In this document: piece after piece, positions 413 through 8,396 of the stretch
Layout of the letters: each line of letters starts with the position of its first letter
Position numbering within the stretch: the stretch's first letter is position 1
Assembly (NCBI GenBank): GCA_021786105.1
Contig: JAJYNW010000010.1
Coordinates: 1 to 64,000 of the forward strand
Length of the DNA stretch: 64,000 bases
From: a bacterium
GTDB taxonomy: Bacteria > Patescibacteriota > Microgenomatia > Daviesbacterales > UBA10151
Direction: 5' to 3'
Position numbers and translations under genes: made by a program
Notes under the pieces: model-generated
Database searches by the model: none
What the model saw: the letters and a program-made list of their open reading frames with translations, nothing else
What the model was told of the DNA's origin: nothing

Positions 413-445
413 TTGACATTAATACTACGGCCGTAGTATTAATGT
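413..445 (+). promoter_or_regulatory. Promoter with perfect 30-bp palindromic operator (upstream copy, cassette 1)
   Basis: TTGACA 413-418; ACATTAATACTACGGCCGTAGTATTAATGT 416-445 is a perfect dyad; ATTAAT 438-443 lies 19 bp after the -35. Confidence 0.8.
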
Positions 446-449
446 TTTA

Positions 450-932
450 ATGAATGTAAAAAAAGGGATTAGCGACCTCGTGCTTCTGACTCTGGAAAAA
501 TCAATTGATGGTTACGTAATTTTTGAGGATTTTATTTATAATCCACTGTTGGAAAGGCCAGTAAAAAAATCGGCACTCTCTCAAGCTTTGAAAAGATTAA
601 GAGAAGGTGGTTTAATTGAGTTACTAAGTGATGAAAAACTGGCATATAGGTTGACGGATAAGGGTAAAGAGAAAGCAGTATTGGCCAGCTTGAAATTTAG
701 TGAAAAAGAATGGGATGGAAAATGGAGGTTGGTAATTTTTGATGTGCCGGAGAAACGAAGACAAGCAAGGGATCTATTGCGATCTAAATTAAAACAATGG
801 GGATTTATAATTTTTCAGCAAAGTGTTTGGGGAACTAAGAAAAATTGCACAAAAGCTATTAGGGATTTTATTAAAAGTGTGGGGATAGAAGATTGGGTGA
901 TGGTGGTGGAATCAGATAACATTGGCCGTTGA
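450..932 (+). CDS. PaaX-family-like regulator (winged HTH + Cas2-like domain), paralog 1
   Basis: KSALSQALKRLR...YRLTDKG wHTH; WDGKWRLVIFDVPEKRR...LKQWGF...QQSVW PaaX central/Cas2-like fold. Confidence 0.85.
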   Translation: MNVKKGISDLVLLTLEKSIDGYVIFEDFIYNPLLERPVKKSALSQALKRLREGGLIELLSDEKLAYRLTDKGKEKAVLASLKFSEKEWDGKWRLVIFDVPEKRRQARDLLRSKLKQWGFIIFQQSVWGTKKNCTKAIRDFIKSVGIEDWVMVVESDNIGR

Positions 933-961
933 CATTAAACATCCGGCCGTGGGATTAATGT
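929..961 (+). repeat. Downstream direct-repeat copy of the cassette-1 palindrome, overlapping the stop codon
   Basis: TTGACATTAA-ACATC-CGGCCG-TGGGA-TTAATGT, in the same register as 413-445. Confidence 0.8.
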
Positions 962-1030
962 AAATGAATGTACAAACGGAATCTTTAGGAACATGCAGAT
1001 GAGTTATTTGCAGGAATCCATAAAGATGGT

Positions 1031-1465
1031 ATGGCGGTTATCCAGCAATATGCAAAACCCCTTAAGCCTAGACCAAGAAACCTACGCTCTTTCTTAGGAG
1101 CACTATGCGACAACACCATCTATTGTGGCATGGTGTATCGGCATGGCCGAAAGATAGATCTTACTATAGAGGGAGAGGGGCAGCCCAAGGTAGACATAGG
1201 GATTGGTGAATGGACTAACGTTCATGGTCGACGTTGGCTTTTATTTAATATAGAAGGAGTGCGGCAGTGTTTGGGCACGAGTATTAGCAAAGAAAGTGAA
1301 GTTTCATGGAATATTTTAGCTGGTGATCAATGGGATGAATTCATGAGAGGCCATCTCTATAATCTGGACAAACCACAGAATCCGCTTGAGGCAGCTCAGA
1401 AATGGCGGGGTGTAATGGATGATGTTTTGAAAGTTCGACCGATCCACCGAGCAGCATTACCCTAG
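1031..1465 (+). CDS. Hypothetical protein
   Basis: 144-aa ORF filling the gap; no motif recognised. Confidence 0.55.
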   Translation: MAVIQQYAKPLKPRPRNLRSFLGALCDNTIYCGMVYRHGRKIDLTIEGEGQPKVDIGIGEWTNVHGRRWLLFNIEGVRQCLGTSISKESEVSWNILAGDQWDEFMRGHLYNLDKPQNPLEAAQKWRGVMDDVLKVRPIHRAALP

Positions 1466-1483
1466 ATAAAATCAGTTAGCAGG

Positions 1484-2206
1484 TTAAACTTTTGATTTTG
1501 AGAGGTAGTCAATAGATTTTTCGTATTGTTCTTTGGTAATCATATTTTTTCCCATGTAATAATCTAAAATATCAGTTAGTTTCATGGCAGCATAAACTTT
1601 GCAGCCTTCTTTTTCCACCTGTTCTACCCCGCCTTGCTCCCGGTCAATTAATACCAGCATGTTGGCATAAAAGCCGACTGTTTTAGCAGCTTCCAAAGCC
1701 TCCAATTTGGATTTGCCGTGGGCAATGACATCATCAATTACCAAAAGCTTAGTGTTCGGTTTTGGGGTCACGCCTTCTTTAATCACAATTTTTCTGTCAG
1801 TATTTTGGCCGATTTTTTCAAATACATCCATAAAAGGCATTTTAGAAACCTCAGAAAACTTCTGGGCAATTACTAAAGCAGCTTTAGGGACTCCGGTACA
1901 AAAATCCTGTGGAGTTTCTAATTTAACTTCGGAAAGAACCTGGGCAATTTTAGTTAAAACTTCCTCCGGTAAATTTCTTAAATTTATATAAATTGGAGAT
2001 AAGGGAGCTTCTATTTTTACCTCATGTACTTTTAAGGCAAATTCTCCCGGGTCTTTTGCAAAATCAATCGGGCTGGTTGGCCGGGAACCTTCCTCAAGGT
2101 AATATGAGCCATCTTCTTTTTGTTTGCGCCTGATGACTTTGGCTTCGATTTTGGTGTTTAACAACAGGTCAGCCAGTTCCTGTTGTGACTTTGTGAGATT
2201 AGACAT
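1484..2206 (-). CDS. pyrE: Orotate phosphoribosyltransferase
   Basis: SPIYINLR, PRPP loop LLVIDDVIAHGKSK, LIDREQGG; overlaps pyrF stop. Confidence 0.85.
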   Translation of the reverse strand: MSNLTKSQQELADLLLNTKIEAKVIRRKQKEDGSYYLEEGSRPTSPIDFAKDPGEFALKVHEVKIEAPLSPIYINLRNLPEEVLTKIAQVLSEVKLETPQDFCTGVPKAALVIAQKFSEVSKMPFMDVFEKIGQNTDRKIVIKEGVTPKPNTKLLVIDDVIAHGKSKLEALEAAKTVGFYANMLVLIDREQGGVEQVEKEGCKVYAAMKLTDILDYYMGKNMITKEQYEKSIDYLSKSKV

Positions 2207-2969
2207 TCTTTATAGCCTCCTGAATTTGAGAGTGTAAACCTTCGGTAGCTTTTCTTGGATCAGGAGCAAAGATGATACCACGGGAGGATGAAATAATTAA
2301 GCCTTGCTTCTTGCTGTTTAGGCCATTTTTAATGGTTGCTTCCAAGTCTCCGCCCTGGGCTCCAATACCTGGTACTAAAATCGGCATATCTCCCACAATT
2401 TCCCTAACTTTTTTCAGCTCTTCAGGATAAGTTGCTCCAACCACTACCGCACAATTTCCATTTGCGTTCCAGTCTTTGGCCACATGTTCGGCAACTAATT
2501 GGTAAAAAGGTTTTCCTTCCACCATTAAGTCCTGAAATTCGCCTGCTCCTGGATTTGATGTTCTGACGAGCACAAAAATTGTTTTGTTGACTCTTTTCAA
2601 AAAAGATTCCAGGGCTTCTTTCCCAAGATAGGGATGAACTGTAACCGCATCAACGCCCAAATCATCAAAAATAGCTTTGGCATAAGCCTCATTGGTATTA
2701 CCAATATCACCTCTTTTGGCGTCTAAAATAATTGGTACAGTAGGCGCTTTTTCTTTAATATATTGGACGGTTTTTTTAAGTGATTCTAAACCCGCAGTTC
2801 CGGAGGCCTCATAAAAAGCGCTTTGTGGTTTATAGGCACAAACTAAGTCAAAAGTTTGATCGATGATGTTTTTATCAAATTCAAAATCACCTTTGTCCAA
2901 ACCAACGCAGACAAATTTACCCTCGTTCCATTTGGCAGTAAGTTTATCCAGGAAAGAATGATTTATCAT
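2199..2969 (-). CDS. pyrF: Orotidine-5'-phosphate decarboxylase (likely start MINHSF at 2969)
   Basis: CVGLD, DAKRGDIGNT, VVGATYP, LVPGIGAQGG, SSSRGI. Confidence 0.95.
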   Translation of the reverse strand: MINHSFLDKLTAKWNEGKFVCVGLDKGDFEFDKNIIDQTFDLVCAYKPQSAFYEASGTAGLESLKKTVQYIKEKAPTVPIILDAKRGDIGNTNEAYAKAIFDDLGVDAVTVHPYLGKEALESFLKRVNKTIFVLVRTSNPGAGEFQDLMVEGKPFYQLVAEHVAKDWNANGNCAVVVGATYPEELKKVREIVGDMPILVPGIGAQGGDLEATIKNGLNSKKQGLIISSSRGIIFAPDPRKATEGLHSQIQEAIKNV

Positions 2970-2983
2970 AGTTTTTATGGTAT

Positions 2984-3030
2984 GTTCTCGGATGCACTCG
3001 AACAATATTCTTCGAGCGATTAGCGAGAAG
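2984..3030. repeat. Inverted pair of short hairpin elements upstream of pyrF
   Basis: GTTCTCGGATGCACTCGAAC (2984-3003) and CTTCGAGCGATTAGCGAGAAG (3010-3030) are near reverse complements. Confidence 0.5.
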
Positions 3031-3089
3031 TTACATCATTATATAAAGGTTTGTGGACATTCACAAGCTGTGGTATATTGGTCGGAGCC

Positions 3090-3878
3090 ATGGATAAGGC
3101 CCTTCCCAATGTTAAACTTTTTCTGGTTTTGATATTTTTTTCTTTAGTTATTTTTCTGATGGATACTGCTAATTTGTTAAATTTCCCAAAGGGATTGGCA
3201 TTTTATATCACCAATCCCATTTCCTTCGGAATTTACAACACTAATAAAAGCATTAGTAGGCAATTTTATTTTATCTTCGGGGCCCGTTTTGCCGCCCAGG
3301 AAAATAAGGCTTTAAAAGAACAAGCAGGAAAGTTGTTTTCCGAAAATGCCAATTTACGGAAAAAACTGGCGGAGACAGAAGCCCTTGTTTCGCAGGAAAA
3401 GCACCTTGATCCCGGTACCTATAATACGTTACCTGCCAGGCCGATCGGATTGGGCCGGTACTTAAAAATCGATAAAGGATCTAATTCCGGTATTAAAGTG
3501 GGGGAAGCAGTGGTGTTTGAAGATAATTTCATCGGCAAGGTGGTGACTGTATCTCCGCAAGCTGCCAATGTTCAGCTGGTGACTGATCCTGATTCAAAGG
3601 TGGCGGCATTCTCTCAAAACAAAGAGGGTAAGGCTAAAGGAGTGCTGCTGGGACAATTTGGCACGGACGTTTTGCTTGATAAAATACTGCATGAGGAAAA
3701 GATTGAGATGGGGGATTTGGTCTATTCAGAAGGGACGGAAGGGTATTTGCCCAGAGGGTTAATTTTGGGAAAGGTGACCCAGGTTTTGGAGCAGGAGAAT
3801 GAAGTGTTTAAACAGGCAAAAGTTGCTCCGATATTTGATATCAGCGACCTGGAATTGGTGTTTGTGATAGAGGAGTAA
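3090..3878 (+). CDS. mreC: Rod shape protein MreC (likely start MDKALP at 3090)
   Basis: N-terminal TM, coiled coil ENKALKE...ENANLR, IDKGSNSGIKVG, GDLVYSEG...PRGL. Confidence 0.9.
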   Translation: MDKALPNVKLFLVLIFFSLVIFLMDTANLLNFPKGLAFYITNPISFGIYNTNKSISRQFYFIFGARFAAQENKALKEQAGKLFSENANLRKKLAETEALVSQEKHLDPGTYNTLPARPIGLGRYLKIDKGSNSGIKVGEAVVFEDNFIGKVVTVSPQAANVQLVTDPDSKVAAFSQNKEGKAKGVLLGQFGTDVLLDKILHEEKIEMGDLVYSEGTEGYLPRGLILGKVTQVLEQENEVFKQAKVAPIFDISDLELVFVIEE

Positions 3879-3880
3879 TT

Positions 3881-4324
3881 ATGAAAACCTTAATTGTTGT
3901 TTTAATCATTGCCGCTTTTTTGCAATCAACTATCGTGCCGGTAGATTTGGTTTTAATCATTCTTATCTGTCGGGCTTATGTCAGATCCGAAAGACAAAAT
4001 CTTTACCTTGGTTTTGCTTTTGGTCTTCTGACTGCCCATTTAAACTTAACCGGTTTGGGGCTTCAGAGCTTAATTTATCTGGCTGCCATCCAAGCCACCC
4101 AGGCTTTATCAAGGATTCGGCTGGCCGGCAATCCTTTAATGATCGTGCCGATTTGCCTGGTCTTTTTATCCTTCAGCCAGGCCATAAATTCATTTATTAA
4201 CCACCAAACGCTGGAGCTGACAAAAGTATTTTTTGTCTCCTTTTTATCCTTGCCAACTCTTTTCCTGTTGAGACTGTGGGAAGAAAGATTTATTGTCCGA
4301 AAAGAGATAAAATTACGCATGTAA
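3881..4324 (+). CDS. mreD: MreD-like membrane protein
   Basis: Multi-TM protein between mreC and PBP2. Confidence 0.7.
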   Translation: MKTLIVVLIIAAFLQSTIVPVDLVLIILICRAYVRSERQNLYLGFAFGLLTAHLNLTGLGLQSLIYLAAIQATQALSRIRLAGNPLMIVPICLVFLSFSQAINSFINHQTLELTKVFFVSFLSLPTLFLLRLWEERFIVRKEIKLRM

Positions 4325-4354
4325 AAATTTTATGCGAAACTAAAAATGTAAGTT

Positions 4355-6220
4355 ATGGCTAAAAGGAGAAATTTAGGCTTTAGTTTTTCTGACGAAGTAG
4401 CAAAAGTTACAAGTAAAACCGGACATTTTAAAAAGGGGGAATCGCCCGAGTGGGTTGATTCTTTACTGCCTAATTGCGGAGCAACAAGCTCGTCTTATTT
4501 CCGCCCGGGTCAGGAGCAGGAAGTTCAGCACAGTATTTGGAGGGTGGTAGTTTTTTTCATTCTTTGTTTGGTGGCATTTTTTTTCATCTTTCTGCGGCTT
4601 TTTCACCTGCAAATTGTGGAAGGTAAGATTAACCGGGAGCTGGCTGATGGCAACCGGATCCAAATTAGGATTATACATGCCCCCCGGGGAGTGATCTTTG
4701 ACCGCAACGGCAAAATTTTAGCCGCCAATTCCCCCGCCTTTCGGTTAAATGACCCCTCTTCTACTGAACATAAAGTCAGAATGGTAACCCGGGAACAGGC
4801 TTTGGAATGGGAAGTGAAAAATGATCCCCAGTGGGAAAACTTAGAAGTTGATAATGTCCGGACTTATCCGGAAGGGGAAAAACTGGCCCATGTGGTGGGA
4901 TATACGGGGGAGATTTCCGAAGAGCAGCTTAAACTGCCCGATTATAAAAATTACCATTCCGGAGACAGAATTGGGCAGACGGGCATAGAGGCAAAATACG
5001 AAAAACTTTTGCGCGGCACAGACGGTGGAGAGATTATTGAAGTCGATTCCAAGGGCCGGAAATTGCGGACTCTCAGGCTTCAGCCGCCTATTTCCGGACA
5101 AAATATTTATTTAGCAATTGATGCATCTTTGCAGGAGAAACTTTATGATTTATTGAAAGATGCAGTAGCTAAGGCAAACAGTTGCTGCGGGGCAGCTGTG
5201 GCGGAGGATCCGAATGACGGTAAGATTTTGGCTTTGGTCTCCGTGCCTTCTTTTGATCCGAATGTATTTACTAAAGTGGAGGATGACGGTGCTATCAGTG
5301 AGATTTTTTCCCGTTCTGATTCACCAAGCTTGGATCGGGTGATTAGTGGTACTTACCCGCCTGGTTCGACTTTTAAGATAGTTTCTTCACTGGCAGCCCT
5401 CTCTTCTGGAAAAGTTAATGCGGACATGACTGTTGAGGATAACGGAGTAATGAATTTGGGGCCGTATAAATTTACCAACTGGTATTTTAATCAATACGGC
5501 AAGACAGAAGGATTGGTAAATTTATTAAGAGCTCTGGAGCGGTCGAATGATACTTATTTTTACAAAATTTCCCAAATTATCGGAGAAAATGCAATTGCCG
5601 ATTGGGCTAAGAAGCTGTATTTAGGCGGGAAATTAGGAATTGATTTGCCGGGAGAGGAAAAAGGTTTAGTGCCTGATAATGCCTGGAAACAGGAAAACTA
5701 TGGGCAGCCCTGGTATCCAGGGGATACTTTACATATGGCCATCGGCCAGGGGTTTGTTTTGGCAACACCTTTACAGGTTTTAGGTTTTACTTCCTATATT
5801 GCCTCGGATGGTAATTTATATAAACCGGAGTTGCTGCGGGATGACAAGCCCAAAATTTTAGCCGCCAATTTACTGCCAAAAGAACAGATTAAATTAATCA
5901 AAGATGGCTTGAAGCTGGTGCCAAAAGACGGAGGAACTGCCTGGCCGTTTTTCAATTTCCCGATAGAAACTGCCGGCAAAACCGGAACCGCCGAATATGG
6001 TGATCCGAAAGACAGGACTCATGCCTGGTATACCTCATTTGCTCCGGCTGATGATCCCAAAATTGCTTTAACGGTTTTGATAGAAGGCGGCGGGGAAGGG
6101 TCAAACGTGGCCGCACCGGTAGCCAAGGAAACCTACCGTTGGTACTTATCGCCGGATAAAAATAGATTGATAAAAGACCTTTATACCGCCACCGATTCCG
6201 GTAAAACTTTAGGGGAATAA
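4355..6220 (+). CDS. mrdA: Penicillin-binding protein 2 (class B)
   Basis: APRGVIFDRNG, PGSTFK (SxxK), SND, KTGTAE. Confidence 0.92.
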   Translation: MAKRRNLGFSFSDEVAKVTSKTGHFKKGESPEWVDSLLPNCGATSSSYFRPGQEQEVQHSIWRVVVFFILCLVAFFFIFLRLFHLQIVEGKINRELADGNRIQIRIIHAPRGVIFDRNGKILAANSPAFRLNDPSSTEHKVRMVTREQALEWEVKNDPQWENLEVDNVRTYPEGEKLAHVVGYTGEISEEQLKLPDYKNYHSGDRIGQTGIEAKYEKLLRGTDGGEIIEVDSKGRKLRTLRLQPPISGQNIYLAIDASLQEKLYDLLKDAVAKANSCCGAAVAEDPNDGKILALVSVPSFDPNVFTKVEDDGAISEIFSRSDSPSLDRVISGTYPPGSTFKIVSSLAALSSGKVNADMTVEDNGVMNLGPYKFTNWYFNQYGKTEGLVNLLRALERSNDTYFYKISQIIGENAIADWAKKLYLGGKLGIDLPGEEKGLVPDNAWKQENYGQPWYPGDTLHMAIGQGFVLATPLQVLGFTSYIASDGNLYKPELLRDDKPKILAANLLPKEQIKLIKDGLKLVPKDGGTAWPFFNFPIETAGKTGTAEYGDPKDRTHAWYTSFAPADDPKIALTVLIEGGGEGSNVAAPVAKETYRWYLSPDKNRLIKDLYTATDSGKTLGE

Positions 6221-6283
6221 TTTAAATATATAACAGGATGGAGCAGTTGACAATCTCCCAATAAAGAGAGAAGATATTTTTGG

Positions 6284-6601
6284 ATGAAGAAAGAGATTAA
6301 AATTTTTTTAGCCATCTTTGTGATTTTGCTAATAGCTGTAGTTTCAGGAGTAATAGTCCGTAATAAGTATCAACAAGCAGATGATTTATGTACGCAACAA
6401 TTACAAAACAAAGCCTTAGAGGAAATTAGTAGGATTGGTAGCCAAAATAATCTGATAAATATGCTACAAAATGGTGCTGGTGACTATTTCAAAGATATCG
6501 CAGCATTAAATGCTAATCTGAAATTATTTTATCGGGATTGTATGAAAAAAGAGGGTATTCCAGGTATGTTTATTAAGGATAAAGAGCCAGCTAAAAAGTA
6601 A
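6284..6601 (+). CDS. Small membrane-anchored hypothetical protein
   Basis: N-terminal hydrophobic helix, two Cys; TTGACA at 6247-6252 upstream. Confidence 0.6.
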   Translation: MKKEIKIFLAIFVILLIAVVSGVIVRNKYQQADDLCTQQLQNKALEEISRIGSQNNLINMLQNGAGDYFKDIAALNANLKLFYRDCMKKEGIPGMFIKDKEPAKK

Positions 6602-6670
6602 ATTCTCCTATCGTGCTTCGCAATATAGCAACTCCATAATGATATTTTTGTAGGTAGTAGCCATAATAAT

Positions 6671-6706
6671 TTGACAAAATGTTCTCGGCCGAGAATATAA
6701 TGAAAA
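6671..6706 (+). promoter_or_regulatory. TTGACA-N19-TATAAT promoter with palindromic operator (upstream copy, cassette 2)
   Basis: TTGACA 6671-6676, dyad TTCTCGGCCGAGAA 6682-6695, TATAAT 6696-6701. Confidence 0.8.
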
Positions 6707-6716
6707 TATACCCTTT

Positions 6717-7211
6717 ATGAACAAAAGAAAAAGTTTGTCCAAGTTAATCCTTCTAATGTTGGAAAAAGCAGTTGATGGTTATGTCAGGTTTGAGGATTTT
6801 GCCTACAACCCTGGATTTTATGTATCAGGAATGAGGGAAGTTAACAAATCAGCTCTGGCTAATGCTTTGAAGAGACTAAGAGACAATGGTTTTGTAGAGC
6901 TTATTTGTGACAAGGAACTGGCTTTAAGACTTGCAGATACTGGACGAAGCAAGGCTTTATGGATAAAAATGAAGTTAGAGGATGAAAAATGGGATGGGAA
7001 ATGGAGGTTGGTGATTTGGGATATTCCTGAGAAAAGGAGGAATGCTAGAGATTTATTAAGGTATCAGTTAAAACAGCTTGGATTTAAAAAATTTCAGCAA
7101 AGTGTTTGGGCTTCAAAGAAAAATTGTACATTCCTTTTAAGAGAATACATTAAAAAAGTTGGGATAGAGGATTGGGTCAAGGTTGTGGAATCAGATGAAT
7201 TAAGTGTTTGA
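6717..7211 (+). CDS. PaaX-family-like regulator (wHTH + Cas2-like), paralog 2
   Basis: KSALANALKRLR, WDGKWRLVIWDIPEKRR, QQSVW, VGIEDWV; colinear with 450-932. Confidence 0.85.
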   Translation: MNKRKSLSKLILLMLEKAVDGYVRFEDFAYNPGFYVSGMREVNKSALANALKRLRDNGFVELICDKELALRLADTGRSKALWIKMKLEDEKWDGKWRLVIWDIPEKRRNARDLLRYQLKQLGFKKFQQSVWASKKNCTFLLREYIKKVGIEDWVKVVESDELSV

Positions 7212-7225
7212 ATCAAGTATCTCAA

Positions 7226-7271
7226 TTCTCTTTTCATAAAATTCTCGGCCGAGAATATAATGAAAAGAGAA
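7226..7271. repeat. 46-bp palindrome (2 mismatched pairs); downstream copy of the cassette-2 site
   Basis: TTCTCGGCCGAGAATATAATGAAAA at 7242-7266 is identical to 6682-6706; the dyad extends TTCTCTTTTCAT...ATGAAAAGAGAA. Confidence 0.85.
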
Positions 7272-7310
7272 ATATGATTTATGTATGATCAAGATTGATT
7301 ACAAGTATTT

Positions 7311-8396
7311 ATGAATAATATTCCATATTTATTAGCGCTTCATTCAATTGATGGCTTGGGGCCGATTAGGCTGCGGGCGGTTTTGGAATATTTTAAAGAT
7401 CCGAAACTGGCTTGGGAAGCAGATGTTGGGGCAATTAGGAAGATTGGGGTTCCGGAAGCCGTAGCACAAAGGCTGGTGGAAACCAGAAAGAAGTTAGAGC
7501 CGGAAACCTATGCCAAAAAAATTGCTGATAGCGGCATCAAATGGATTACGGTTTTTGATGACAACTACCCCAAACTGCTTTCTCAAATTTACGATCCGCC
7601 GCTGGTTTTATATTTTAAAGGAAATTTAGAAGATACTGATAAAAAAACGATTGCAGTTGTCGGGACTAGAAAAATCACTGGTTATGGGAGAATAGCAACT
7701 CAGCAGTTTGCTAAAGGGTTGACTGAGGCAGGTTTAACGATTGTGTCAGGTTTGGCCCGGGGAGTAGATTCGCAGGCGCATCTAACTGCTGTTACGGAAA
7801 GCGGCCGGACCATTGCCGTTTTGGGCGGCGGGTTAAATAAAATCTTTCCGCCGGAAAATAGAGGCTTGGCAACAAAAATTGCCTCTGGTTTTGGAGCGGT
7901 AGTATCTGAGTTCCCTCCTGATTATCCGCCTTTGCCGGGGAATTTCCCGGCCAGGAATCGGATTATTTCCGGTTTATCCTTGGCAGTAGTAGTGATTGAG
8001 GCAGCTTCCGATTCCGGTTCCCTCATTACGGCCAGGTTGGCTTTGGAACAGGGGCGGGAAGTTTTTGCCGTGCCCGGGCCAATTACTTCAGATTTATCCA
8101 AAGGCCCAATTGATCTGATTAAAGACGGGGCCAGGGCAGTTTTTAGCCCGGAGGAAATTCTGGAGGAACTGGGAGTAGATAGGGTACAGGCTACAGGGTA
8201 CAGGTTACAGAATGAAAAAAATCTTTCAGAAGAAGAGGAAATGGTTTTGAAGGTGCTGGAAAATGAAAACCGCCACATTGATGAAATTGGCCGCCAGTTA
8301 AACTTCCCCTCTCCAAAAATTTCCGCACTTCTCCTCAAAATGGAAATTTCAGGGCTTGTTCAAAGCGTGGGAGCTGGGATATACTGCAAGAAGTAA
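7311..8396 (+). CDS. dprA: DNA-processing protein DprA/Smf
   Basis: YPKLLSQIYDPP, AVVGTR, SGLARGVD, FPARNRIISGLS, SGSLITA, REVFAVPG. Confidence 0.95.
   Translation: MNNIPYLLALHSIDGLGPIRLRAVLEYFKDPKLAWEADVGAIRKIGVPEAVAQRLVETRKKLEPETYAKKIADSGIKWITVFDDNYPKLLSQIYDPPLVLYFKGNLEDTDKKTIAVVGTRKITGYGRIATQQFAKGLTEAGLTIVSGLARGVDSQAHLTAVTESGRTIAVLGGGLNKIFPPENRGLATKIASGFGAVVSEFPPDYPPLPGNFPARNRIISGLSLAVVVIEAASDSGSLITARLALEQGREVFAVPGPITSDLSKGPIDLIKDGARAVFSPEEILEELGVDRVQATGYRLQNEKNLSEEEEMVLKVLENENRHIDEIGRQLNFPSPKISALLLKMEISGLVQSVGAGIYCKK

Follow-up and report, generated by a model that had tools for sequence, protein, structure and literature searches.

Mini-PaaX genes of Patescibacteria bracketed by putative cognate dyad operators, the centre of which covaries with one residue of a Cas2-like domain

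The window analysed in this work consists of the first 64,000 nucleotides of a 99-kb contig (JAJYNW010000010.1) belonging to a Patescibacteriota assembly (Microgenomatia, Daviesbacterales; GCA_021786105.1; 1.04 Mb, 40% G+C, 92% complete). It contains two genes coding for small proteins, 60% identical to each other, that we call mini-PaaX, and each gene stands between two copies of a palindromic sequence (Table 1). A previous sequence-only reading had placed a dyad in front of paralog 1 (413-445, with its leading TTG) and a second copy over its stop codon (929-961), as well as identical 25-mers around paralog 2 (6682-6706 and 7242-7266; this gene is own4 in our tables). Direct reading and a repeat finder found all of them at these positions, and the 46 bp given for the dyad around the last copy fairly describes the well-paired core of a longer one. 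The putative recognition helices, KSALSQALKR and KSALANALKR, are also present as written. Two explanations had been proposed for this layout: either a minimal cassette excised or inserted by recombination between the repeats, or a regulator co-evolving with its operator and also controlling the next gene.

Table 1. Features of the two mini-PaaX loci of the window (forward-strand coordinates; operators and promoter elements are predictions).
Feature	Position	Strand	Comment
TTGACA, -35-like hexamer, paralog 1	413..418	+	Putative promoter element; its final three bases open the paralog 1 upstream dyad
Upstream operator (predicted), paralog 1	416..445	.	Perfect 30-bp dyad ACA-N9-CGGCCG-N9-TGT, arms 15/15
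Paralog 1, 160 aa	450..932	+	Winged helix, residues ~1-83; Cas2-like PaaX_M, residues 86-158
Downstream operator copy (predicted), paralog 1	932..961	.	Arms 8/12 symmetric; with TTG 929-931 overlaps the TGA stop
144-aa open reading frame, possible target of the paralog 1 downstream site	1031..1465	+	No Pfam family, no PADLOC family
TTGACA, -35-like hexamer, paralog 2	6671..6676	+	Direct sequence reading
Upstream operator (predicted), paralog 2	6674..6703	.	Centred on TTCTCGGCCGAGAA; TATAAT inside at 6696-6701, 19-nt spacer from the -35
Paralog 2, 164 aa	6717..7211	+	Same architecture as paralog 1; Q at the position equivalent to 124 (FQQSVW)
Downstream operator copy (predicted), paralog 2	7234..7263	.	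Within a longer dyad 7219-7278; TATAAT 7256-7261; 48 nt before dprA
dprA (DNA_processg_A + DprA_WH)	7311..8396	+	Conserved downstream neighbour of the paralog 2 ortholog group

In front of paralog 1, a -10-like TATTAA (437-442) is part of the dyad, and 4 nt separate the dyad from the ATG, as would suit a leaderless transcript. The copy over the stop codon is 82% identical to it over 33 nt: it has other bases in the inner N5 but the same outer ACATTAA/TTAATGT and CGGCCG centre. The pattern ACATTAA-N5-CGGCCG-N5-TTAATGT has two matches in the window versus 0.00 in 100 shuffled sequences. Just after the downstream site, at 964-1002, ATGAATGTA reproduces the first three codons of the gene (450-458) and is followed by nine codons and a stop; the repeat reaches about 16 nt past the dyad, as if a promoter and a gene start had been duplicated. 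The next open reading frame (ORF), located between paralog 1 and convergent pyrE-like and pyrF genes, is a rare accessory gene with one relative (31% identity, E 6e-14) in one of 95 other genomes of the family. At the other side, bases 1-126 resemble the C-terminal end of an integrase-core (rve_3-like) transposase (ORF end 2-100; E 0.022, below cut-off) and lie on a separate contig with about sixfold depth in run X1; this looks like an insertion sequence (IS) copy at the contig start, adjoining paralog 1.

The 25-mer of paralog 2 has two exact matches in the window plus its own inverted image, versus 0.00 expected. At its downstream copy, the arms of the longer dyad (7219-7248 and 7249-7278) are 83% complementary. 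A consensus promoter scan detected there TTCATA-17-TATAAT (7233-7261), the only one of the four sites of the window that it picked up, and dprA is the likely target of this downstream operator.

Both proteins match PF20803 (PaaX_M) with E-values of 4.1e-23 and 2e-22 (81.7 and 79.5 bits for a cut-off of 24). In an AlphaFold2 model (predicted local distance difference test, pLDDT, 88.7) a winged helix (helix-helix-helix-strand-strand) is followed by a beta-alpha-beta-beta-alpha-beta domain. Foldseek retrieved E. coli PaaX (8a39) first (E 9.7e-5, 158 aligned columns), then 3kfw, Cas2 chains (root-mean-square deviation 2.3-3.3 Å over about 70 residues) and 3l09; together with the PF20803 matches, this bears out the Cas2-like ferredoxin fold that had been attributed to the central domain. 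8a39 was again on top of a profile search of the PDB (E 4.4e-6). With the C-terminal domain, a single-sequence PDB search gave no match and a profile of 29 sequences was required. By sequence, the N-terminal winged helix gave only weak matches of the MarR/PadR type (E 0.003-0.07). A Pfam scan found no match to the PaaX_C effector domain, the proteins ending at residues 160-164, directly after the Cas2-like domain, and the PaaX equivalog model TIGR02277 scores 38.9 and 30.8 bits for a cut-off of 264.55. For these two reasons we consider them as relatives of PaaX rather than PaaX orthologs. Instead of paa genes, the family has as neighbours dprA and genes for an M1 peptidase, GH1 and Wzy_C, among others.

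As regards Cas2 itself, the scores with the curated models come close to their cut-offs and remain under them (PF09827, 18.5 for 23.8 bits; TIGR01573, 23.0 for 24.5 bits) and the PADLOC Cas2 models match at E 2e-5. In profile alignments the Asp of the motif F-D-I-P-E (D98) and the Q-x-S-V-W strand, which is FQQSVW with Q124 in paralog 1, align with the Cas2 chains 3exc and 6jhz (E 0.013-0.09), and E. coli PaaX lacks both. D98, R107 and S125 are invariant in 81 sequences.

We also modelled the protein as a homodimer. The model scored 0.46 versus 0.00 for the best of three controls; among solved pairs 20 of 30 attained this mark, and among single chains 1 of 23. At least 96% of the contacts were shared between runs, and the partner pLDDT was at least 83. 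The predicted interface comprises residues 94, 96-98, 122-126, 134, 138, 149 and 151-160. Since PaaX and Cas2 dimers have already been solved, this pass may reflect likeness and is not a proof of dimerisation. In the model, residue 124 lies within the interface and would be close to the two-fold axis, which we suppose to coincide with the centre of the palindrome.

In Cas2, the Asp at this position binds the catalytic metal. The domain could thus have kept a catalytic activity, cutting or nicking DNA site-specifically at the CGRYCG centre with the help of a metal ion, and regulation would be a secondary trait. The invariant residues, the alignment with solved Cas2 chains of motifs that E. coli PaaX has lost, and the position of D98 in the predicted interface, adjoining residue 124, speak for it. 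However, the sites occupy promoter-like positions of the gene itself, of dprA and of pth, where cutting would be harmful, the Cas2 matches stay under the curated cut-offs, no partner methylase or cas1 (PF01867) was found in this genome (92% complete) and the conserved Asp may be structural. We consider an enzyme of this kind very unlikely.

The own genome carries six paralogs, and each of them (6/6) lies between two copies of a dyad of its own, one immediately upstream and one directly after the stop codon, centred on CGGCCG in four cases and on CGATCG in two. When all 64 palindromic hexamers are compared as centres of long dyads, these two rank highest in this genome (9/221 and 8/65 with arms of at least 8/12). 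In the sixth paralog (C13:10435-10866; L004:736-1167) the match contains one TGA and the final third of the Cas2-like domain is missing; this shortened gene, which still has both dyads, has probably become a pseudogene only recently.

In order to see how general this layout is, we took the best 80 of at least 463 related loci. The close set comprises 60 genes (L010-L063 and the six own-genome paralogs) and the distant set 24 loci from Saccharibacteria, Giovannoni-, Staskawicz- and Nealsonbacteria and WWE3; L066, assigned to the distant set, was dropped from it as it has no usable start. In the close set, CGRYCG dyads are present within 130 nt upstream of 59/60 genes and between -20 and +90 of the stop codon in 51/60, both being present in 51/60, versus 3.7% (upstream-type) and 3.2% (downstream-type) of 2346 random windows from the same loci. 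The nine genes without a downstream match mostly have a degenerate centre or are frameshifted. Positions are also constrained: the upstream centre is at -18/-19 from the ATG in 28/59 genes and the downstream centre at +15/+16 after the stop in 20/51. The TTGACA (TTGaCA) arrangement is seen in most of the 59 upstream sites, and -10-like elements too.

The two copies of a gene resemble each other specifically. Cognate upstream and downstream sites share 17.1 of 24 flank positions, versus 10.0 (standard deviation 3.4) for non-cognate pairs and 14.3 in inverted orientation; for 26 genes the own downstream site is the best of 51, and the centre is identical in 45/51 pairs. The distant loci, with centres that include GCGATCGC, CTGCAG and GCTATCGC, show an upstream/downstream match of at least 15/18 in 17/24 cases versus 1/72 controls. 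The survey of homologs called for by the sequence-only reading thus found its layout to be general. The family counts 5779 cluster representatives at E <= 1e-3 (2847 at E <= 1e-10), and of the 301 genomes sampled from the phylum, 76 have PF20803, in 1-12 copies each. Judging from these sequences, a mini-PaaX gene with a predicted cognate operator at both ends is a family-wide rule.

What determines the centre of the dyad? In the first set of sequences, residue 124 (alignment column 141) is Gln in 17/17 genes with CGGCCG, and Lys (24), Arg (8) or Leu (2) in the 34/34 genes with CGATCG; genes with the mixed centres CGACCG and CGGTCG have Gln or Asn. On a maximum-likelihood tree built without column 141, each trait changes ten times and 10/10 independent pairs agree in direction. 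Sister pairs illustrate it: L010 (Gln, CGGCCG) against L011 (Lys, CGATCG), and likewise L021/L024, L040/L042, and L017 versus own2/L016. A replicate set of 88 non-redundant rows combined the distant loci with metagenome loci sharing less than 90% identity with the first set; 72 rows had both motif and dyad and were usable. There, Gln goes with a centre other than CGATCG in 11/11 rows and Lys/Arg with CGATCG in 45/51, hence agreement in 56/62 (Fisher 2e-8, uncorrected for kinship). This rule would explain why all four sites of the window share CGGCCG, since both proteins have Gln, and residue 124 would likewise account for the identity of the upstream and downstream cores.

The proposal of a regulator co-evolving with its operator is therefore supported, with the correction that the covarying residue lies in the Cas2-like domain and not in the recognition helix where it was expected. 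Indeed, covariation of helix and operator was tried and rejected: K-S-x-L-S-Q-A-L-K-R-L-R-E is nearly constant across very different arms.

We then considered the downstream copy. In the close set, the downstream neighbour is codirectional in 41/59 cases and convergent in 18/59. In the dprA group the downstream site, with a -10-like element, stands 10-50 nt before the start of dprA, and from its position it would most simply be the promoter-operator of dprA. The copy could then be the operator of the next gene only, or a decaying relic of a tandem duplication, without any role for the regulator gene. Besides the many codirectional neighbours, the repeat of paralog 1 continuing through ATGAATGTA, which resembles a duplicated gene start, would agree with this. 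However, the copy is present in 15/18 convergent cases, with gaps (14-143 bp) too short for a gene, as it is in 36/41 codirectional ones, with 15.7/24 and 17.6/24 positions identical to the upstream copy, respectively. It persists in the GH1-linked group, where each of the five genomes has a different downstream neighbour, and in distant subfamilies, and a relic would not stay cognate through about ten switches of the centre. We find this explanation unlikely. The retention with convergent neighbours and with the varied neighbours of the GH1 group indicates that the downstream copy belongs to the regulator gene; the idea that the regulator also controls the next gene thus agrees with the codirectional dprA and with type-matched sites elsewhere (see below) and does not account for the convergent cases.

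The downstream palindrome might also act at the RNA level, as a hairpin terminating or stabilising the mRNA, its likeness to the upstream site being secondary. It begins at the stop codon, with the preferred spacing mentioned above, it sits in the short convergent gaps where a terminator is expected, and in this genome (92% complete) Rho gave only weak matches (TIGR00767, 48 bits for a cut-off of 509). The same assembly has nothing over the cut-off for Mfd. Nevertheless, dyad symmetry is lower in the downstream than in the upstream copies (mostly 0.45-0.78 per position, and 0.90 at arm position 11), and the arms are better kept as direct copies than as inverted ones, which is unexpected if pairing were selected. 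Moreover, no T-run follows the palindromes, a terminator scan lists none of the four sites of the window, and the centre covaries with a protein residue. An RNA element thus appears very improbable. Returning to an operator that serves the regulator gene, we infer that the downstream copy is an auxiliary operator acting through a loop and/or a roadblock or insulator.

The excisable cassette is the remaining alternative: the site-gene-site unit would recombine at its direct repeats, the palindrome being the recombination core, as in dif/pdif modules or integrons. The site is indeed made of arms and a 6-bp centre with the core identical in most pairs, paralog 1 adjoins the end of an IS copy, and there is one case of presence/absence. 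In this case, C24 has a paralog-1-type site upstream of a Wzy_C/TPR gene, and L019 and L014 have a family paralog at exactly this position, beside the orthologous gene; both neighbours are orthologous between C24 and L019 (70% and 59% identity), and the upstream one only between C24 and L014 (66%). The dyad of C24 is kept where L019 and L014 have the regulator; therefore the regulator gene turns over and the operator stays. But this sole gene-less allele is not the clean single site that excision would leave, as it combines the paralog-1-type dyad at the promoter of the neighbour with a second, unrelated small dyad. The latter (C24:2960-2990; L006 ~2262-2292) is a short CGATCG dyad with its own TTGACA, 31 bp from the paralog-1-type site, where 139 bp separate the Wzy_C/TPR gene from a gene of 250 aa; its arms match no paralog of the assembly.

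Other evidence is against recombination. Neighbours are stable while operators drift (dprA at 8 loci, PBP2 at 6, M1 aminopeptidase at 5 and GH1 at 5). The two copies are not identical, and their differences are conserved among orthologs: the upstream one ends with CATTTGT and the downstream one with CAAATGA in own2 and L015-L016, and partly in L017. The identity of the cores is accounted for by residue 124, and profile scans (Pfam, NCBIfam) found no recombinase domain in the proteins of the window. The contigs of four runs, in which rare forms are invisible, have no joint at 430/946 or 6688/7248; the joints found were elsewhere and came from low-identity contigs of other organisms. Finally, a complete relative has about 35 solitary sites for four genes (see below). 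A mobile cassette is, in our opinion, extremely unlikely, and on these sequence comparisons the family would consist of autoregulated mini-PaaX regulators with regulons and not of a mobile element. Adjacency to a tRNA gene was also tried as a sign of integration and rejected: tRNA-Leu is beside only 1/4 paralog loci outside the window (ARAGORN). This tRNA-Leu(CAA) (L001:850-933, C22) precedes the C22 paralog by 113 bp and is encoded on the other strand.

To what extent do such sites exist away from the family genes? In the own genome, the pattern CA-N9/10-CGRYCG-N9/10-TG has 26 sites versus 0-4 for asymmetric controls; 12 flank the paralogs and 14 are solitary. Solitary sites can be assigned to paralog 1 (three, at C14, C21 and C24), paralog 2 (one), paralog 5 (two) and paralog 6 (one). 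G394, a complete relative of 820 kb used for a site census, has four family genes, all bracketed, and 43 generic sites versus 8 for a control pattern; its solitary sites sort into the types of its four genes. An ORF start near the site was an uninformative test, since 64% of random positions pass it, and we used the span of open frames instead: 12/35 solitary sites lie in long open frames versus 66% of random positions. The occurrence of similar dyads all over the genome, unrelated to these genes, had been named as an argument against the initial proposal. Dyads of this kind do occur genome-wide, but they match the paralog types, which argues for regulons; sites of the same type would form small regulons rather than being private to the regulator genes.

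Some of the solitary sites deserve mention. C15:5108-5137 and C13:9304-9333 are well-formed dyads in coding sequence: one, with arms 11/12 symmetric, is inside a signal-peptidase-like ORF, and the other, of the paralog 6 type, is inside trmD, 1.1 kb upstream of that paralog. At the paralog-1-type sites C14:25665-25694 and C21:62430-62459, the TTGACA side points into the 3' end of the neighbour, in convergent/antisense orientation, more suggestive of a roadblock or of antisense transcription under regulation than of a classical promoter.

Taken together, these data lead us to consider as probable that mini-PaaX proteins are dimeric autoregulated repressors, each one with its own dyad operators, the role of the downstream copy being partly explained. 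The protein would combine a winged helix with a Cas2-like domain for dimerisation, without the C-terminal effector domain of PaaX. The dimer would bind a dyad of about 30 bp, ACA-N9-CGRYCG-N9-TGT, in which every paralog has specific arms. The Cas2-like dimer would have its two-fold axis over the centre of the dyad, where residue 124, the x of Q-x-S-V-W, would set the two central base pairs (G:C with Gln, A:T with Lys/Arg), and the winged helices would contact the outer arms. Occupying the spacer and the -10 of its own, mostly leaderless, promoter, the upstream copy would lead to self-repression, like PaaX at Px. The second copy, starting at the stop codon, would be the promoter-operator of the next gene when this gene is on the same strand (about 70%; dprA, perhaps ORF 1031). 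As it is kept equally with a convergent next gene, it must also serve the regulator, presumably as an auxiliary operator (co-operativity or looping over about 540 bp) or, alternatively, as a protein roadblock that would insulate the gene, no Rho having been found in this genome. Sites of the same type elsewhere would give the small regulons.

Several observations weigh against this interpretation. A pure repressor does not explain the invariant Cas2-type D98. The consensus promoter scan missed both upstream promoters and gave 19 promoter-like sites versus 19.3 in shuffled sequences; its rules (16-18 nt spacer, T at position 6) leave out upstream promoters with 18-19-nt spacers or a -10 ending in A. 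Only 3 of the 10 switches of residue 124 are on well-supported branches of a quick tree, where the sign test cannot reach 0.05, and 6 of the 51 Lys/Arg rows of the replicate are exceptions (in three of them the dyad at the opposite gene end is centred on CGATCG, and two carry CGTACG). No arm-reading residue was found, since a position-by-position mutual-information scan of the arms gave clade-level signals only, and the distance between operators correlates with the winged helix (rho 0.50) no better than with the Cas2-like domain (0.55; partial 0.29 versus 0.33). Some well-formed solitary sites are inside long open frames. Looping is unsupported because we know of no tetramer or higher oligomer of mini-PaaX proteins and the two copies show little helical phasing (R 0.24 at 10.2-10.5 bp; p ~0.05, without correction and with sequences that are related).

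PaaX of E. coli and Pseudomonas (8a39, 3l09) is the closest known system, with an N-terminal winged helix followed by the Cas2-like PaaX_M, and a dimer. According to a published report, it represses its own gene by hindering RNA polymerase at a long dyad with distant half-sites, TGATTC-N27-GAATCA (PMC9493321), which is comparable to what we propose. Mini-PaaX differs from it by a size of about 160 aa without PaaX_C (TIGR02277 ~39 for a cut-off of ~264), by the Cas2-type Asp and Q-x-S-V-W strand, by a 30-bp operator with a CGRYCG centre and a second operator at the stop codon, and by its expansion into multiple paralogs in genomes of the Candidate Phyla Radiation (CPR). With Cas2 (PF09827, TIGR01573) it shares the ferredoxin-like fold, the beta1 Asp and beta2 Q-x-S motifs and a predicted dimer formed via the same region of the sheet. 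In contrast to Cas2, its domain is fused to a winged helix, scores under the cut-offs, has housekeeping neighbours in a genome without a cas1 match, and appears, from the covariation, to share in sequence-specific reading of DNA, which to our knowledge no Cas2 does.

Repressor genes located between two operators have precedents: lambda cI lies between OR and OL, and lacI has O3 at its 3' end. In lambda, the far operator helps autoregulation by looping; in lac, it is a roadblock where the repressor gene ends and also serves the next promoter as an auxiliary operator. In lambdoid immunity regions, every repressor comes with operators of its own. Likewise, mini-PaaX genes stand between two predicted cognate operators; unlike in cI and lacI, the sites hug a single 0.5-kb gene and the layout is the rule of a whole family. 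Dif/pdif modules and integron cassettes are also genes flanked by short imperfect palindromes with a 6-bp centre, whereas mini-PaaX loci show no recombinase and no junctions, have a stable synteny, and possess sites that overlap promoter elements and covary with the protein.

A literature search found no paper joining PaaX with Cas2 or Cas2-like proteins, and in searches combining PaaX with CPR taxon names PaaX was absent from the matches listed. We found no earlier description of putative operators at both gene ends as a family rule, nor of an apparent one-residue code for the operator centre in a Cas2-like domain. Going further, it is conceivable, although we hold this with less than even confidence, that the Cas2-like dimer is a sequence-reading head with one residue setting the centre, that each paralog is a self-insulated cassette able to duplicate and to re-specify, that such genes may supply much of the transcription factor repertoire of some CPR genomes, and that the Cas2 Asp might mean a metal-dependent step at the centre.

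Control of transcription in Patescibacteria is almost undescribed; a perspective published on their biology in 2024 mentions neither transcription factor nor regulon nor operator (PMC11665869). The mini-PaaX family is present in about a quarter of the sampled CPR genomes. An operator at both ends of the gene, whatever follows it, raises the question of looping, roadblock or insulator in compact genomes in which no Rho was found. The rule linking one residue to the central base pairs would be a simple specificity code and would give the Cas2 fold a role in sequence recognition, which bears on the relations among Cas2, VapD and PaaX. Since the predicted operators can be read from the flanks of each gene, regulons would become predictable genome by genome.

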